IMG/VR virus record: IMGVR_UViG_2585427776_000006
Strand: one strand, 5' to 3'
Length of the DNA stretch: 5,817 bases
Source: a virus
Lineage: Duplodnaviria > Heunggongvirae > Uroviricota > Caudoviricetes
A program made the translations under genes and the position numbers. The notes under the pieces were generated by a model. The model did not search any database and was not told where the DNA came from. It worked only from the letters and a program-made list of their open reading frames with translations. Below, in pieces: positions 1-5,817 of the stretch; the stretch's first letter is position 1, and every line of letters starts with the position of its first letter.

Positions 1-189
1 CATGCCGATCGCCAGGCTTAAATGAGTCGGTGTGAATCCCATCAGCGTTACCGTTTCGCGGTGCTTCTTTAGTACGCTACGGCAAATGTCATCGACGTTT
101 TTATCCGGAAACTGCTGTCTGGCTTTTTTGATTTCAGAATTAGCCTGACGGGCAATGCTGCGAAGGGCGTTTTCCTGCTGAGGTGTCAT
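1..189 (-). CDS. Hypothetical phage protein, partial. ATG at 189..187; the 63 visible codons (MTPQQENALRSIARQANSEIKKARQQFPDKNVDDICRSVLKKHRETVTLMGFTPTHLSLAIGM...) run off the window start with no stop
   Basis: Open frame from the ATG to the window edge. Its ATG overlaps the TGA of the upstream 27-aa ORF (ATGA), as seen throughout this operon. An alternative in-frame ATG lies at 255..253. No recognised homolog. Confidence 0.4.
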   Translation of the reverse strand, partial: MTPQQENALRSIARQANSEIKKARQQFPDKNVDDICRSVLKKHRETVTLMGFTPTHLSLAIGM

Positions 190-269
190 TGAACAAGTCC
201 CATGTCGGCAAGCATAAGCACACAGAATATGAAGCCCGCTGCCAGAAAAATGCATTCCGTGGTTGTCAT
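186..269 (-). CDS. 27-aa hydrophobic small peptide (MTTTECIFLAAGFIFCVLMLADMGLVQ), possible small membrane protein
   Basis: Not in the supplied ORF track (too short). ATG at 269..267 overlaps the methyltransferase TGA (268..266) as ATGA. A GGGAGG Shine-Dalgarno sits 4 nt upstream. The stop TGA (188..186) overlaps the next ATG (189..187). Confidence 0.3.
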   Translation of the reverse strand: MTTTECIFLAAGFIFCVLMLADMGLVQ

Positions 270-823
270 GCAGCCTCCCGACGGGCAAGAATCCTTGAGC
301 CGAACGCCATCAACTCTCCACGATCAACGGTCGTAAAGTGGCAGTGTGTACGGGGGTATGGGTGCCAGATAATGAGCATCGAGCCTTTATTATTTCCACT
401 GACGGGTTTCTCAGTGAGTGGGTTAATAAATGCCAGTCGTCCTGCCGTGATGAATCTGACCTCACTGGCGGTTTGTATCGCTTCATGAAACCATCCGACA
501 GATGTGTCAGCAGGCAATAACATTACACATCCCACACTACTGAATTTGTTTTCAGTGGCTGCCTTTTTCACAAAAGGGGAAATATTGCTGTATGGTGGAT
601 TCAACCAGACATAACCAGAGGCATATCCCATTGCTTCAGGCCATGAAGTGGTTAATGTGTTCTGCTCCTGTGAGATAAAAAGCCGACATAGTCGGTTTTT
701 TTCGCTGGCGGCAGCATCAAGTTGAAAAACGAACTCTGCATTAAGCGCAGCAAAAATCTCTGGTGGTGTGCGCCAGCTGTCGCGATGTTCGGCAGGAGTA
801 TTGCTTCCGGTGAAATCAGTCAT
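266..823 (-). CDS. Phage-type DNA N6-adenine methyltransferase (Dam-like, small phage MTase family)
   Basis: 185-aa ORF. NPPY catalytic motif (VWLNPPYSN; NPPY codons at 601..590) is typical of N6-adenine/N4-cytosine MTases. The N-terminal WRTPPEIF...FQLDAAAS matches the conserved start of the phage Dam family as I recall it. Position downstream of exo resembles Stx-type lambdoid phages. Confidence 0.85.
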   Translation of the reverse strand: MTDFTGSNTPAEHRDSWRTPPEIFAALNAEFVFQLDAAASEKNRLCRLFISQEQNTLTTSWPEAMGYASGYVWLNPPYSNISPFVKKAATENKFSSVGCVMLLPADTSVGWFHEAIQTASEVRFITAGRLAFINPLTEKPVSGNNKGSMLIIWHPYPRTHCHFTTVDRGELMAFGSRILARREAA

Positions 824-977
824 ACAGCCCCCGTTTATTATTTATCTCCTCAGCCAGCCGCTGTGCTTTCAGGGGATTTCGGATAACAGAAAGGCCGGGA
901 AATACCCAGCCTCGCTTTGTAACGGAGTAGACGAAAGTGATCGTGCCTACCCGGATATTATCGTGAGGATGCTTCAT
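816..977 (-). CDS. Hypothetical 53-aa protein ([53 protein letters not shown])
   Basis: Not in the ORF track (under 60 aa). ATG 977..975 overlaps the exo stop TGA (976..974) as ATGA. A GGGGAG SD lies 8 nt upstream. The 3' end overlaps the methyltransferase start by 8 nt. Position corresponds to the small ORFs after exo in lambda. Confidence 0.4.
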
Positions 978-1654
978 CGCCATTGCTCCCCAAATGCAAA
1001 ACCAATTTCAGCCAGTGCCTCGTCCATTTTTTCGATGAACTCCGGCACCATCTCGTCAAAACTCGCCATGTACTTTTCATCCCGCTCAACCACGACATAA
1101 TGCAGGCCTTCACGCTTCATACGCGGGTCATAGTTGGCAAAGTACCAGGCATCTTTTCGCGTCACCCACATGCTGTACTGCACCTGGGCCATGTAAGCCG
1201 ACTTTATGGCCTCGAAACCACCGAGCCGGAACTTCATGAAATCCCGGGAGGTAAACGGGCATTTCAGCTCAAGGCCATTGCCGTCACTGCATAAACCATC
1301 GGGAGAGCAGGCGGTGCGCATACTTTCGTCGCGATAGATGATCGGGGATTCAATAACATTTACGCCGGAAGTGAACTCAAACAGGGTTCTGGCGTCGTTC
1401 TCGTACTGTTTTCCCCAGGCCAGCGCTTTAGCGTTAACTTCCGGAGCCACACCGGTGCAAACCTCAGCCAGCAGGGTGTGGAAGTAGGACATTTTCATGT
1501 CAGGCCACTTCTTTCCTGATCGGGGCTTTGCTATCACGTTGTGAACTTCTGAAGCGGTGATGACGCCGAGCCGTAATTTGTGCCACGCATGATCCCCCTG
1601 TTCGACAGCTCTCACGTCGATCCCGGTACGCTGCAGGATAATGTCCGGTGTCAT
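974..1654 (-). CDS. exo: Lambda-type 5'-3' exonuclease Exo (Red alpha)
   Basis: 226-aa translation ([21 protein letters not shown]...GEQWR) matches lambda Exo from memory over its whole length, with the same size. Start overlaps the bet stop (ATGA). Confidence 0.97.
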
Positions 1655-2436
1655 GCTGCCACCTTCTGCTCAGTGGCTTTCTGTTTCAGGAATCCAAGAG
1701 CTTTCACTGCTTCGGCCTGTGTCAGTTCTGACGATGCGCGAATGTCGCGGCGAAATATCTGGGAACAGAGCGGCAATAAGTCGTCATCCCATGTTTTATC
1801 CAGGGCGATCAGCAGAGTGTTAATCTCCTGCATGGTTTCATCGTTAACCGGAGTGATGTCGCGTTCCGGCTGACGTTCTGCAGTGTATGCGGTATTTTCG
1901 ACAATGCGCTCGGCTTCATCCTTGTCATAGATACCCGCAAATCCGAAGGCCAGACGGGCACACTGAATCATGGCTTTATGCCGTAACATCCGTTTGGGAT
2001 GCGACTGCCACGGTCCGGTGATTTCTCTGCCTTCGCGGGTTTTGAATGGTTCGCGGCGGCATTCATCCATCCACTCGGTAACGCAGATCGGATGATTACG
2101 GTCCTTGCGGTAAATCCGGCATGTACAGGATTCATTGTCCTGCTCAAAGTCCATGCCATCAAACTGCTGGTTTTCATTGATGATGCGGGACCAGCCATCA
2201 ACGCCCACCACCGGAACGATGCCGTTCTGCTTATCAGGGAAGGCGTAAATTTCTTTCGTCCACGGATTAAGGCCGTACTGGTTGGCGACGATCAACAATG
2301 CGATGAACTGCGCATCGCTGGCATCACCTTTAAATGCCGTCTGGCGAAGAGAGGTGATCAGTTCCTGTGGGTCGACAGAATCCATGCCGACACGTTCAGC
2401 CAGCTTCCCTGCCAGCGTTGCGAGTGCTGTACTCAT
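1651..2436 (-). CDS. bet: Lambda-type single-strand annealing recombinase Bet (Red beta)
   Basis: 261-aa translation ([38 protein letters not shown]...) matches lambda Bet from memory, with the same length. Canonical gam-bet-exo order. Confidence 0.97.
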
Positions 2437-2441
2437 CCGTT

Positions 2442-2738
2442 TTATACCTCTGAATCAATATCAACCTGGTGGTGGGCAATAGTTTCAACCATGTACCGGA
2501 TGTGTTCTGCCATGCGTTCCTGAAACTCAACATCGTCATCAAACGCACGGGTAATGGCTTTTTTGCTGGCCCCGTGGCGTTGCAAATGATCGATGCATAG
2601 CGATTCAAACAGGTGCTGAGGCAGGCCTTTTTCCATGTCGTCTGCCAGTTCTGCCTCTTTCTCTTCACGGGCGATCTGCTGGTAGTGACGCGCCCAGCTC
2701 TGAGCCTCAAGACGATCCTGAATGTAATAAGCGTTCAT
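2442..2738 (-). CDS. gam: Gam, RecBCD inhibitor (short 98-aa form)
   Basis: Translation [34 protein letters not shown]...[10 protein letters not shown] matches lambda Gam. CAGGAG SD lies 7 nt upstream of the ATG. An in-frame stop at 2795..2793 with no intervening start means only the short form is encoded here. Confidence 0.95.
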
Positions 2739-2813
2739 GGCTGAACTCCTGAAAATGGCTGTGAAAATATCGCCCGCGAAATGCCAGGCTGATTAGGAAA
2801 ACAGGAAAGGGGA

Positions 2814-3020
2814 TTAGTGATTCAGGCCGTTACCGCGTCCGTCGAGAAAAACTTCCACGAGCAAATCACGGGTATAAGTGCGCTCGATGCCGCGATGCAG
2901 ATATAGCCGTCCGCGTAAATTAGCTGATGCAGTCCAGGTACCATCTTTGTGTTTGACCAGCATTCCTGGCATGACCGCACCTCGATTAACGGTCTGCGTT
3001 CCGTAATGTTGATGAACCAT
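2814..3020 (-). CDS. Hypothetical 68-aa early protein in the Kil position upstream of gam ([68 protein letters not shown])
   Basis: The track ORF 2814..3095 begins at a non-ATG codon (TTG). I place the start at the internal ATG 3020..3018, which has an AGGAG SD 5 nt upstream. Function assigned by position only; the sequence is not recognised. Confidence 0.5.
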
Positions 3021-3156
3021 AAAAACTCCTGCCCGTAAGCTGGGCTGCTGAACATATAGAGACTTCTGCGCGTATTTCGACGTATGGGGAAACAAGTGTG
3101 ATTCGCCAACCGTATCATTAAGCCCGGCCCGAGTTACTGATGTTTATTCTTAAAAG

Positions 3157-3165
3157 AATTAACTG
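3157..3165. repeat. Left copy of the 9-bp direct repeat AATTAACTG flanking the AT-rich cassette (extended imperfect repeat TTCTT-N5-AATTAACTG begins at 3147)
   Basis: Exact 9-mer also present at 5026-5034. Both copies are preceded by TTCTT and a 5-nt spacer. Confidence 0.4.
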
Positions 3166-3192
3166 AAAAGAGGAAGGTTTGATGAGTTTTTT

Positions 3193-3210
3193 TACGTGAA
3201 TTAACACGTA
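3193..3210. promoter_or_regulatory. Palindrome TACGTG-AATTAA-CACGTA (6-bp arms, 6-bp spacer), candidate operator in the divergent intergenic region
   Basis: Perfect inverted repeat read directly from the sequence. Lies between the divergent Kil-position gene and the cassette promoter. Confidence 0.3.
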
Positions 3211-3306
3211 AGACTGCTGGTTATTAAACCATCACATTAGATATCTAAAAATTGTGATCGGTATCTCCCTACTATAAAAAAAAGTAGTTGAATATACGGT
3301 CTATAC

Positions 3307-3334
3307 TTGAAATAAATAAAAGTATTCTTATTTT
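3307..3334 (+). promoter_or_regulatory. Candidate sigma70 promoter for the cassette: -35 TTGAAA (3307-3312), 16-bp spacer, -10 TATTTT (3329-3334)
   Basis: Hexamers and spacing read from the sequence about 30 bp upstream of the gene A start. Other weaker combinations exist in this AT-rich region, so the exact promoter is uncertain. Confidence 0.3.
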
Positions 3335-3353
3335 TTAGATTCTGTGTTGTGAA

Positions 3354-3358
3354 AAGGA
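3354..3358 (+). promoter_or_regulatory. Ribosome-binding site AAGGA for the 343-aa ORF
   Basis: AAGGA lies 6 nt upstream of the ATG at 3365. Confidence 0.5.
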
Positions 3359-3364
3359 ATTTTT

Positions 3365-4396
3365 ATGTCCTCGAATATTTTATCTGGTGAAAAAGTAATC
3401 AATAAAATTGCTGAAAAGTTGAGCGATTATAAATATCCTCCGGCTGAAGGTATGAACTCTGAACATGTCAGCAAATGGATTAAGCAATTTGCAGTGGAGG
3501 ATAGACGATTTATCTTAGATGAAACGCTTTATCTACTTAATGCAGGTTACCTATCCGAAAGTCAATATCAACGAAAAATAAAAGCCATTGCAAGAAGTGA
3601 AAAGAACGCGAAACTCTTCAGATATGCAGGTTTTTTAGATATTCAAAAAAAAGGTTCTAGTCAGAAGGAATTGCTTAAATCTCTTTATGAAACAGTAGGG
3701 ATCAAATTTAACATCGTTACTGAATCATCAACTCAAGATGAAGTAAATAAATTTGATACATTTGTATATATTGATGATGTGTCGTTTTCAGGAGAAAAGG
3801 CCATCAAATCGATAAGTAATTTTGTTTTAAAATTTAATTTAAGAGATATTAAATTCAATGTATATTTTTTTTCATCTCATACGTTATCTGACTATAATAT
3901 AAAAAGACGATTAGAATATATTTTTAAGGATAGAAACATTTTTGTACACGTGAAGAATGGTGGTATGCGTGAGGTTGAAAACCGAAAAAGTCGTTCTGCT
4001 CAATCAGGTGTTTTCTGGCCAAGGAAATATAGTGTAGATACTCCCGAGAAATTCGAGGAGTGTGAGCTTTACAAAGGCGTATTCAGAGATGGATATGCCT
4101 CTTCTGATAGTTTTAGAAATGAAGCCTCAAGGGATCGTTTCGAATCTATCCTTACTAAAGTCGGCTTTAATATCTTGCTGCACAGGAAAACCCCTAGTGA
4201 GGTGCTCAAACCTCTAGGTTTTTCTACTTTTGACGGTTTGGGTTTTGGGGGAACAACATTTACTTATCGAAATTGCCCGAATAATGTGCCGCTGGCTTTT
4301 TGGTGGGGAGATTATGAACCAACAGGTGCTCCCGCATTGGACTGCTGGTATCCACTAATGAAGCGGAATGGGTATAATGAGTGGTATGAGCTATAG
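3365..4396 (+). CDS. Uncharacterised 343-aa protein, candidate toxin/effector of the cassette. Contains a phosphoribosyltransferase-like loop motif FVYIDDVSFSGEK (residues 133-145)
   Basis: Long ORF with a good SD and AT-rich codon usage distinct from the phage genes. The motif (four hydrophobics, DD, then V-S-F-S-G) resembles the PRPP-binding signature of type I PRTases (for example VLLVDDVLTTGGT), but that resemblance is my inference from a single short motif. No homolog recognised. Overlaps the downstream NADAR gene. Confidence 0.75.
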   Translation: MSSNILSGEKVINKIAEKLSDYKYPPAEGMNSEHVSKWIKQFAVEDRRFILDETLYLLNAGYLSESQYQRKIKAIARSEKNAKLFRYAGFLDIQKKGSSQKELLKSLYETVGIKFNIVTESSTQDEVNKFDTFVYIDDVSFSGEKAIKSISNFVLKFNLRDIKFNVYFFSSHTLSDYNIKRRLEYIFKDRNIFVHVKNGGMREVENRKSRSAQSGVFWPRKYSVDTPEKFEECELYKGVFRDGYASSDSFRNEASRDRFESILTKVGFNILLHRKTPSEVLKPLGFSTFDGLGFGGTTFTYRNCPNNVPLAFWWGDYEPTGAPALDCWYPLMKRNGYNEWYEL

Positions 4397-4997
4397 ATTA
4401 TATCCGCTACAGAACACAGTTTCCTTCAGGAAAACCACCGAAAAATGGGGGGGGCTTTCCAACATGGCTAAAGGATATCCATTGTTAATCAATGGGTTGC
4501 CTATTCAATCAAGTGAAATCCTTTACCAAGCATGCCGATATCCAGACTATCCGGATATACAAAAGGCCATCATTACTCAAGGAAACCCCTATGAAGCCAA
4601 GCAGACCGCAAGATCGTTTGAATCCAAAACTCGCGCAGGATGGGATAAGAATCGAGTTTCGATTATGAAGTGGTGTGTATGCGTAAAATTATGCCAGAAC
4701 TGGGATACGTTCTTTGCGCTGTTAGACAGTACAGGCGACCATTTCATCGTGGAACACTCAGAGAAGGACCAATTCTGGGGTGCCAGTAAAGACCCAGAAG
4801 GTAACTATTATGGTATGAACGTATTAGGGCGAATTCTCATGGACGTGAGAGGGGTTGCTAGGAAAAAGGGGGCTGATGGGTTTGCAACAATACCATCGCT
4901 ATCTTTGGACAAATTTTTTCTCCTAGGCGAAAGAATTAAAGATGTAACATTTGTAGAGCCAACGCCTGGAGCAGGGCAAAGTTTATCCTTGTTTTAG
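4368..4997 (+). CDS. NADAR (YbiA-like, DUF1768) domain protein, predicted ADP-ribosyl / N-glycoside hydrolase and candidate antitoxin or immunity partner
   Basis: Translation carries the NADAR signature blocks as I recall them from E. coli YbiA: GGLSNM (YbiA GDFSNF), SSEILYQACRY (YbiA TSEHYFQAQKF), IVEHSEKDQFWGAS (YbiA LVEHTENDAYWGDG) and NVLGRILMDVR (YbiA NRLGYLLMELR). Three in-frame ATGs (4368, 4377, 4386) all lie inside the end of the upstream gene, so the exact start is uncertain. Confidence 0.85.
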   Translation: MGIMSGMSYRLYPLQNTVSFRKTTEKWGGLSNMAKGYPLLINGLPIQSSEILYQACRYPDYPDIQKAIITQGNPYEAKQTARSFESKTRAGWDKNRVSIMKWCVCVKLCQNWDTFFALLDSTGDHFIVEHSEKDQFWGASKDPEGNYYGMNVLGRILMDVRGVARKKGADGFATIPSLSLDKFFLLGERIKDVTFVEPTPGAGQSLSLF

Positions 4998-5025
4998 CGT
5001 TCCATCTGGGGCATTTTCTTCCATA

Positions 5026-5034
5026 AATTAACTG
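5026..5034. repeat. Right copy of the 9-bp direct repeat AATTAACTG (preceded by TTCTT at 5016-5020)
   Basis: Exact match to 3157-3165. Sits 29 bp after the NADAR stop codon, at the point where composition returns to phage-like. Confidence 0.4.
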
Positions 5035-5107
5035 GCGTACCTCCCTCGGCGTTTTTTTGTTGCCATAAAAGGTTTTTGATTTTCTATAATCAACCAGCCA
5101 TAATCAT

Positions 5108-5136
5108 GTCACCGGAGCCTGAACAACTCCGGTGAC
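5108..5136. other. Perfect 10-bp inverted repeat GTCACCGGAG-(9 nt)-CTCCGGTGAC, a stable stem-loop
   Basis: Read directly from the sequence. No following T-run on either strand, so it is not a canonical intrinsic terminator. Possibly a processing or regulatory hairpin, or a remnant of the phage early-left leader. Confidence 0.4.
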
Positions 5137-5315
5137 TTCTGCGCTAAACGGGGACGTTTATGCGCACATACAATCTAAACTCTCTTCTCCCGCCACAGAT
5201 GCAGAAATGCACCTGCGATTTTTTGCATCCAGCGTTTGACCTCTGCGGAGGTGAAGCGTGAACCTCCCACAAGACGGCATCAAACTTCATCGCGGTAACT
5301 TCACCGCTATCGGTC

Positions 5316-5340
5316 TGAACCGCCCCGGGAATCCTGGAGA
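5316..5340 (+). repeat. Putative left terminal inverted repeat of the IS element (TGAACCGCCCCGGGAATCCTGGAGA)
   Basis: IS3-family ends begin with TG, and the spacing to orfA is typical. The right end is outside the window, so the repeat cannot be confirmed by pairing. Confidence 0.45.
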
Positions 5341-5369
5341 CTAAACTTCCTGAGAAAGAGGTAAACAGG

Positions 5370-5696
5370 ATGACTAAAAATACTCGTTTTTCCCCCGAAG
5401 TCCGTCAACGGGCAGTCCGTATGGTTCTGGAAAGTCAGAGCGAATATGACTCACAATGGGCGACAATTTGTTCCATTGCTCCAAAGATTGGCTGTACGCC
5501 GGAGACTCTGCGTGTCTGGGTTCGCCAGCATGAGCGGGATACCGGGGGCGGTGATGGAGGGCTCACCACCGCTGAACGTCAGCGTCTGAAAGAGCTGGAA
5601 CGTGAAAATCGTGAACTGCGCCGCAGTAACGATATCCTTCGCCAGGCTTCCGCTTATTTTGCGAAGGCGGAGTTCGACCGCCTCTGGAAAAAATGA
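5370..5696 (+). CDS. IS3-family transposase OrfA (helix-turn-helix DNA-binding part), 108 aa
   Basis: Translation [60 protein letters not shown]...[36 protein letters not shown], with the leucine-zipper-like C-terminus typical of IS3 OrfA. AGAGG SD upstream. Confidence 0.9.
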
Positions 5697-5817
5697 TGCC
5701 ACTGCTGGATAAGCTGCGTGAGCAGTACGGGGTCGGACCGCTATGCAGCGAACTGCATATTGCCCCGTCAACGTATTACCACTGTCAGCAACAGCGACAT
5801 CATCCGGATAAACGCAG
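5693..5817 (+). CDS. IS3-family transposase OrfB (catalytic part), N-terminal fragment truncated by the window end
   Basis: Translation [41 protein letters not shown]... in the -1 frame relative to orfA. An A6 run (5688-5693) at the orfA/orfB junction is a candidate programmed -1 frameshift site. Confidence 0.85.

Follow-up and report, generated by a model that had tools for sequence, protein, structure and literature searches.

The cassette and its identity with DS-32

The stretch of viral DNA examined here (IMG/VR record IMGVR_UViG_2585427776_000006; 5,817 nucleotides, referred to as the window) carries, on the plus strand between the Red-region genes of a lambdoid prophage and an insertion sequence (IS), a cassette of two overlapping genes, gene A and gene B, with a GC content of 0.28-0.44 against 0.51 in the flank (Table 1). 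This composition, the common orientation and the overlap had already been noticed in an earlier note made from the sequence alone, which saw in the cassette an undescribed toxin-antitoxin (TA) or anti-phage module on a mobile element. An anti-phage module on a mobile element it is, given that a near-identical clone protects Escherichia coli (PMC13092281), but it has been described before: the cassette is almost certainly a copy of the two-gene anti-phage system DS-32 that forms part of the cargo of a lambdoid prophage, and its two products are identical to those of the published clone in 342/343 and 202/203 residues.

Both proteins pass the equivalog cutoffs of the DS-32 families. Protein A matches NCBIfam NF053875 ('DS32_1, phosphoribosyltransferase-like anti-phage protein') with 310.5 bits (cutoff 250 bits) over profile positions 2-322 of 322, protein B matches NF053876 ('DS32_2, NADAR family anti-phage protein') with 257.4 bits (cutoff 240 bits) over positions 1-181 of 181, and the genes are adjacent and co-directional, the phosphoribosyltransferase (PRTase) gene preceding the NADAR gene. 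With respect to the clone sequences given in Table S8 of PMC13092281, the only substitution in protein A is L84 (F in WP_000097610.1) and the only one in protein B is E191 (K in WP_032260665.1); protein B is identical to WP_024167494.1.

The DefensePredictor study (bioRxiv 10.1101/2025.01.08.631726; Science 2026, PMC13092281) validated DS-32 among other systems. The clone, listed there as 'NADR', encodes WP_000097610.1 and WP_032260665.1 and derives from NZ_QOXQ01000027.1 (48629-50261); candidates were introduced into strain MG1655 on a low-copy plasmid together with their native upstream region (PMC13092281). Table S7 of that study gives -log efficiency of plating values of 3.70 for Bas26, 1.60 for RB69, 0.88 for SECphi18, 0.62 for T5 and 0 for Bas67, with smaller plaques for all five phages, which corresponds to a protection of about 5,000-fold against Bas26 and about 40-fold against RB69 (PMC13092281). 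Since DS-32 is thus published, phage-tested and named in RefSeq annotation, the window is one more copy of a known cassette and adds little as a discovery. Bas26 is, we presume, a T5-like phage. The clone has the same two genes in the same order and with the same overlap as the window cassette; the window copy, in contrast, lies in a rearranged, IS-interrupted remnant and not in an intact prophage, and its own defence activity is presumed from the near-identity of the proteins.

Table 1. Positions (in nucleotides of the window) and strands of the features at the locus.
Feature	Position	Strand	Remark
Dam (phage N6-adenine methyltransferase gene)	266-823	-	left arm
exo	974-1654	-	lambdoid Red-region gene
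bet	1651-2436	-	lambdoid Red-region gene
gam	2442-2738	-	lambdoid Red-region gene
kil, 68 aa	2814-3020	-	PHROG 294 Kil, 1.1e-38; coordinates transferred by alignment with L001
MT-A70 methyltransferase gene, 3'-end remnant, 79 bp	3075-3153	+	base-by-base comparison with L001, blast breakpoints
AT-rich leader upstream of DS-32A	3154-3364	+	GC 0.275
DS-32A (gene A), 343 aa	3365-4396	+	PRTase-CE phosphoribosyltransferase-like protein
DS-32B (gene B), 203 aa by RefSeq start	4386-4997	+	predicted YbiA-type NADAR N-glycosidase
Candidate terminator-like hairpin (weak) with T-rich tail	4999-5012	+	consensus scan; directly 3' of DS-32B stop
ylcH-like ORF, 33 aa	5160-5261	+	coordinates transferred from L003, L001
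ybcN, first 58 nt, cut off by IS	5258-5315	+	coordinates transferred from L003, L001
IS3-family element, left end, IS1203/IS629-like	5316-5817	+	HTH_Tnp_1 match; sits in ybcN
IS orfA	5370-5696	+	within IS3-family element
IS frameshift pseudoknot	5651-5767		Rfam ALIL, 120 bits

The PRTase-CE and NADAR proteins

Profile and structure searches upheld the earlier assignment of protein B to the NADAR family (PF08719, NF053876) and overturned the statement that protein A is unrecognised, because the latter matches not only NF053875 but also Pfam PF24390, PRTase-CE (2.2e-38). Protein A has the features of the type I phosphoribosyltransferase fold, namely a five-stranded PRTase core and a loop for phosphoribosyl pyrophosphate (PRPP) with two adjacent acidic residues. 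The PRPP loop comprises residues 132-145 (nt 3758-3799), in which D137 and D138 are invariant, and is followed by the signature G291-x13-P305NNVP309 (nt 4235-4291). The PADLOC model PRTase_III-A is matched over nearly the full length (1.5e-10), an HHblits match is labelled 'Retron_III~PRTase', and the structural neighbours are uracil, orotate and purine PRTases. Pfam, NCBIfam and PADLOC gave no match to an ADP-ribosyltransferase (ART) or to DarT, as anticipated in the earlier note, and in their preprint the DS-32 discoverers likewise saw no structural similarity to DarT (bioRxiv 10.1101/2025.01.08.631726). Judged from its sequence, protein A (DS-32A) is phosphoribosyltransferase-like, belongs to PRTase-CE and is akin to the effectors of type III retrons.

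Protein B (DS-32B) matches the Pfam family NADAR, PF08719, with 82.4 bits (5.7e-23; gathering score 35.1 bits). Its closest relative of solved structure is E. coli YbiA (2B3W, E = 2e-11), the second-ranked NADAR chain being 8BAU (E = 0.074), and its segment IVEHSEKDQFWG aligns with VEHTENDAYWG of YbiA. Residues E44, Q48, K72, R83, W86, E123, D128 and W131 are invariant in 78 partner NADARs. A glutamate in the last strand, which corresponds to E123 of DS-32B (nt 4752-4754), defines the YbiA family (PMC11125620), and DS-32B, in which this residue is conserved and the gathering score is exceeded, falls into that family. NADARs of the BC4488 type carry an aspartate in the last strand instead, where DS-32B and its relatives invariably have the glutamate.

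Gene overlap, leader and direct repeats

Genes A and B overlap by 11 nt if translation of B begins at the RefSeq start (4386) and by 29 nt if the longest open reading frame (ORF; 4368-4997, 209 aa) with its alternative upstream ATG at 4368 is considered. GC content, which is 0.51 over positions 1-3075, drops to 0.275 in the leader (3154-3364) and amounts to 0.357 in gene A, with 0.29 at third codon positions, and 0.436 in gene B. The ribosome-binding site postulated earlier is present as AAGGA at 3354-3358, 6 nt 5' of the gene A ATG. The leader also holds a candidate promoter, TTGAAA-16-TATTTT, at 3307-3334. However, the number of sigma-70-like hexamers (6, against 6.1 expected in shuffled sequence) shows no enrichment and lends no support to the claim, read from the sequence, that the cassette has its own promoter; yet the published clone worked from the native upstream region. 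Folded as RNA, the leader (3154-3364) reaches -43.8 kcal/mol (z = -2.55), a value equalled by 1/200 shuffles, so that the fold is modestly more stable than that of shuffled sequences; no Rfam family matches the leader.

The cassette is flanked by a 19-nt imperfect direct repeat at 3147-3165, just past the methylase stop, and 5016-5034, just past the NADAR stop. The core of the repeat, AATTAACTG, occurs within the window at those two sites only, and the repeat is not present in the divergent DS-32 variant of locus L002. It may represent an insertion footprint or have arisen by chance.

Genomic location and prophage decay

The earlier note had the cassette inserted beside kil, in a slot between the Red genes and N/pL. 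Complete genomes tell otherwise: its native place is after O-P-(MT-A70) and before ylcH-ybcN-ninE. The cassette occurs with at least 99% identity in 19/5,426 complete E. coli genomes and as a divergent variant (52% amino acid identity for A, 85% for B) in 43 further ones, 62/5,426 in all, and both forms reside in DLP12/lambda-like prophages, where they follow the replication genes and are co-directional with rightward transcription. The gene order is O - P - (MT-A70 methylase) - DS-32A - DS-32B - ylcH - ybcN - ninE - ybcO - rusA - Q, the MT-A70 gene being annotated in L001, L006, L007 and L009. The right flank is conserved from about window position 5074 in >2,800 E. coli genomes, and the interval from P/ren to ylcH holds emrE-ybcK, an alpha/beta hydrolase, a P22AR + HEPN pair or MT-A70 + DS-32 in different prophages; this interval is a true variable cargo slot.

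The apparent position in a Red-N/pL slot comes about because deletion or recombination removed the immunity and replication genes. At the junction 3075/3076, the sequence up to 3076 is kil upstream region and the sequence from 3075 onwards is the terminal 79 bp of the MT-A70 gene (3' end), with 'TT' only common to both parental positions in a base-by-base comparison with L001. The left (Red) arm is intact as far as kil, for which the RefSeq annotation of L001 gives the same 68-aa form; this gene lies outside the cassette and marks the left side of the junction only. Compared with L009, a metagenome scaffold, at least 4.7 kb are absent from the window, including a 126-aa gene, a cI-type repressor, ydaS, ydaT, O, P and most of MT-A70. 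Since identity to L009 is 100% for the right arm (3075-5817) but 98.8% for the left, and since the Dam gene is absent from L009-type prophages, the window is a mosaic, defective prophage remnant. Its region 3075-5315, leader included, shows 99.9-100% nucleotide identity to other natural DS-32 copies, and the whole arrangement of the window is not found in any complete E. coli genome of the collection.

At the Dam position, L009/L003-type prophages have DUF1382/DUF1317 genes instead, which is another sign of mosaicism. The IS insertion in ybcN is present in identical form in L009, and the matching element is annotated in H32 as 'IS3-like element IS1203 family transposase'. A second variable slot, deleted in the window, is the kil-to-repressor interval, the one that the earlier note had in view; it holds a SIR2-family gene in the intact relative L001 (3434-5035) and a 126-aa or 1,014-nt hypothetical gene in other relatives. 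Together with the window, L004, L005 and L008 represent the same icd-adjacent prophage with differing gaps among the adjacent genes (exo followed by the cassette, a truncated recT by P, xis by gam), and the cassette is kept in all of them. This suggests that defence cargo is retained while the surrounding prophage decays.

Conserved pairing of PRTase-CE and NADAR

A profile search of 1.84 billion representatives yielded 1,239 clusters (50% identity), and a motif scan with one genome per species detected the family in 304 species from many phyla; the counts of pairings and fusions given below rest on 80 retrieved species loci. A NADAR gene lies downstream of PRTase-CE and on the same strand in 80/80 loci (77 by ORF search, 3 by tblastn), immediately adjacent in all but one of them (79/80). 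The exception, in Enterobacter mori (L011 5001-8671), has the order PRTase-CE - unassigned 141-aa ORF - second PRTase-CE - single NADAR, the first PRTase-CE being 76% identical to protein A and the second (341 aa) about 52%. In P0221 both domains reside in a single chain. PRTase-CE and NADAR are obligate partners, and both active sites are invariant, under strict purifying selection. Between the divergent variant (L002 8233-9866) and the window (3365-4997), protein A is 44-49% identical over residues 1-270 and 66% over residues 271-343; these regional values, set against the 85% identity of B, indicate that the N-terminal two-thirds of DS-32A diverges much faster than the NADAR protein.

In 24/80 loci the C-terminus of the NADAR continues into another module. 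Most frequent is a NADAR at the N-terminus of HsdS, the specificity subunit of type I restriction-modification (R-M) systems, which was found in 17 of the 80 (L024, L029, L030, L034, L035, L038, L044, L045, L060, L064, L067, L069, L071, L072, L080, L086, L089). An HsdM-like ORF lies upstream in 17/17 of these, in the order hsdM-(other defence genes)-PRTase-CE-NADAR::hsdS, and in three loci checked with Pfam (L069, L071, L045) GmrSD, DUF4062, SLFN/AlbA_2 or UvrD stands between or beside hsdM and the pair. Fusions to a DUF1156 methyltransferase were seen in 4/80 loci (L040, L050, L062, L081), each (4/4) with a homologous SNF2/ResIII-NOV_C helicase upstream (Pfam-confirmed in L040 and L050), and fusions to a helix-hairpin-helix module, HHH_3, in 3/80 (L061, L073, L084). 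A stand-alone NADAR without R-M genes is characteristic of about 55/80 loci, including the window and the validated clone. PRTase-CE itself occurs in the architectures LRR-PRTase-CE, FGE-sulfatase-PRTase-CE and PRTase-CE-HRDC, each with the NADAR gene directly downstream (PRTase-side architectures were taken from P0221, P0149, P0233, P0227 and loci L091-L094). A Zeta-toxin gene neighbours the pair in L093 and L094, and L093 also has a Polbeta/HepT pair. The top-ranked matches of the literature searched make no mention of NADAR together with HsdS, and a preprint on embedded defences has NADAR in a figure legend only and no PRTase (bioRxiv 10.1101/2024.01.29.577857). The conserved PRTase-CE/NADAR architecture with its R-M-tethered forms, of which no description was found in the literature searched, is what is new here.

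The tethered forms raise the idea, which we regard as quite unlikely, that the pair guards R-M systems. It would serve as a reserve effector of abortive infection, its NADAR being kept in place by, or monitoring, the HsdS/HsdM or DUF1156 methyltransferase complex, and would fire once phage anti-restriction proteins disable that complex, the stand-alone prophage form being a derived, untethered version. PrrC in the EcoprrI locus is a precedent for an effector triggered in this way. The HsdS fusions with their HsdM-like ORFs, the four DUF1156 methyltransferase fusions behind a SNF2/ResIII helicase and the established pattern of defence genes embedded in R-M-type loci (bioRxiv 10.1101/2024.01.29.577857) all speak for a guard. 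Against it stand the majority of loci, with their stand-alone NADAR and without R-M genes, and the clone, which defends by itself in MG1655. Such a guard concerns regulation and is compatible with either of the chemistries considered below, writer/eraser or futile cycle.

The genomic contexts also bear on the proposals that the cassette serves counter-defence, as an orphan NADAR against host DNA ADP-ribosylation of the DarT1 type, or that it is a nucleotide-salvage or riboflavin-damage-control operon. In favour of the former, the cassette lies in a prophage, and phages, T4-like ones included, carry orphan NADARs that neutralise DarTG1 (PMC11825919); in favour of the latter, bacterial NADARs remove reactive riboflavin-pathway intermediates (PMC11125620). 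Both are largely refuted and very improbable. The cloned pair protects against phages in a host without the relevant prophage context, and the NADAR is never apart from PRTase-CE in the loci examined. A conserved metabolic operon outside mobile elements, which the earlier note had named as evidence against a defence module, was not encountered: the pair occurs in prophage cargo slots and R-M operons and next to genes like those for GmrSD, SLFN/AlbA_2, HEPN/MNT and Zeta toxin, and among complete E. coli genomes the cassette is present in no more than the 62/5,426 mentioned above.

Relation to known defence systems

The effectors of type III-A retrons, such as that of Retron-Eco11, are homologous to DS-32A, with which they share the PRPP loop, the PNNxP signature and probably the PRPP-consuming chemistry. 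The published spacing of the signature is G-x14, whereas it is G-x13 in DS-32A. Unlike the retrons, DS-32 lacks a reverse transcriptase, the msr/msd non-coding RNA and the C-terminal winged helix-turn-helix tail, and its constant partner is a NADAR. The window contains no reverse transcriptase ORF and no Rfam match to an msr/msd RNA, the IS pseudoknot being its sole Rfam match, and among the conserved clusters of neighbouring genes in the 80 loci, of which Pfam checks covered the larger ones, none resembles a reverse transcriptase. With neither an adjacent reverse transcriptase gene nor an msr/msd RNA, the assignment as a retron was rejected.

DarT1-NADAR (DarTG1) and YarT-YbiA resemble DS-32 in that an upstream transferase gene is followed by an overlapping NADAR gene, in their role in phage defence and in a NADAR that hydrolyses, or in DS-32 is predicted to hydrolyse, an N-glycosidic ribosyl adduct. 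Their transferases, however, are NAD+-using ADP-ribosyltransferases, while DS-32A has a PRTase fold and its donor is presumably PRPP. The NADAR of YarT-YbiA is of the YbiA (Glu) type like DS-32B, in contrast to the DarT1 partners, which are of the BC4488 (Asp) type. DarTG1 was rejected as the identity of the cassette, protein A being no DarT-family ADP-ribosyltransferase and protein B not of the BC4488 type.

ShosTA, PsyrTA and OpnC of Ophion also include defence-associated proteins with a PRTase domain, none of them with a NADAR. ShosT, whose toxicity involves DNA damage, has an N-terminal pyrophosphatase domain and is partnered by the DNA-binding antitoxin ShosA, and the Ophion PRTase is paired with radical-SAM and PHP proteins. 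In E. coli K-12, the LexA-controlled dinG-ybiB-ybiA operon of the DNA-damage regulon places the NADAR protein YbiA beside the DNA-binding PRTase-like protein YbiB (PMC11125620). This pair is chromosomal, non-mobile and without a known defence role, and its resemblance to DS-32 may be taken as an analogy only.

Proposed mechanism

In the reaction of type I PRTases, PRPP donates ribose-5-phosphate to a nucleophilic nitrogen. NADARs cleave the N-glycosidic bonds of ribosyl groups by hydrolysis, on the one hand in intermediates of the riboflavin pathway and on the other at guanine N2 of ADP-ribosylated DNA, in which case they act as antitoxins (PMC11125620). Taken together, these chemistries imply that what a PRTase makes belongs to the class of compounds on which a YbiA-type NADAR acts. 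The mechanism we consider most likely, with a probability of roughly 40%, is a TA-like writer/eraser scheme, in which a PRPP-dependent phosphoribosyl transfer is reversed by the NADAR N-glycosidase. DS-32A would take ribose-5-phosphate from PRPP, consuming the latter, and attach it to a nucleophilic nitrogen, in all likelihood that of a purine base within DNA or within a nucleotide; DS-32B would hydrolyse this phosphoribosyl-N bond and thereby hold DS-32A in check until the balance is upset by infection. As acceptor, a base of nucleic acid or of a nucleotide is favoured because NADAR and PRTase are repeatedly fused to DNA-recognition modules and HRDC. The scheme builds on the identity with DS-32, the folds, the intact catalytic motifs, the obligate pairing and the fusion architectures, as well as on the phage protection shown by others, and would add to these the donor, the acceptor, the reversal, the trigger and the toxicity. 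The idea in the earlier note that a different effector had been paired with a NADAR-type reversing enzyme is the discoverers' own 'TA partner swapping' hypothesis, offered as speculation in their preprint (bioRxiv 10.1101/2025.01.08.631726).

Several points weigh against the writer/eraser scheme. The PRTase of Retron-Eco11 is non-toxic alone, with a PRPP loss of about 50% as the only measured effect, and ShosT binds PRPP and shows no binding of, or PRTase activity with, the purines tested; for these reasons no defence PRTase has a known acceptor. The fold of DS-32A gives no base preference either, since its neighbours span uracil, orotate and purine PRTases. The literature searched, including the DS-32 reports, contains no account of toxicity of DS-32 proteins alone or of rescue by the partner, and the paragraph on partner swapping is gone from the Science text, which keeps only a general mention of the NADAR domain (PMC13092281). 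Finally, a co-effector pathway would account for the obligate pairing and the fusion just as well, and the fusions to HsdS and methyltransferase could reflect regulatory tethering to R-M complexes and not a DNA substrate.

Such a co-effector pathway, a futile cycle, is the main rival, although we hold it to be somewhat unlikely. Here both enzymes would work jointly in the infected cell. From PRPP and a base, the PRTase would make a product resembling a nucleoside 5'-monophosphate, which the NADAR would split again into base and ribose-5-phosphate, so that the net reaction, PRPP + H2O -> ribose-5-phosphate + pyrophosphate, would destroy PRPP catalytically and starve phage nucleotide synthesis, and the NADAR would not be an antitoxin. 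This agrees with the measurements on the related Retron-Eco11 PRTase, whose activation had PRPP depletion as its sole recorded effect, and with ShosT, which likewise couples a PRTase to a second, hydrolytic domain pulling the reaction forward; strict co-occurrence (80/80) and single-chain fusion are typical of consecutive pathway steps, and both active sites are invariant. On the other hand, a futile cycle leaves the NADAR fusions to DNA-recognition and modification modules and the PRTase-HRDC fusion unexplained, all characterised NADAR partners of toxins are antitoxins, and a constitutive cycle needs a separate off-switch, of which the two-gene E. coli form shows none.

Implications

What remains of interest is the chemistry of DS-32 together with the conserved PRTase-CE/NADAR architecture, R-M-tethered forms included. 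Pairing in all of the loci over many phyla, invariant active sites and NADAR fusions lead to a specific and testable writer/eraser hypothesis on nucleic-acid or nucleotide bases. In its boldest and, in our estimation, unlikely form, PRTase-CE would write a previously unknown nucleic-acid modification, a base phosphoribosylated from PRPP (for example at guanine N2, in phage or host DNA), and the YbiA-type NADAR would erase it. The tethering of the eraser to HsdS, a DUF1156 methyltransferase or a helix-hairpin-helix module in about 30% of species would then provide a sequence- or complex-directed protection of self-DNA. If true, DS-32 and its relatives would represent a PRPP-based analogue of DarT-NADAR and a new coupling of a defence effector to the R-M machinery.

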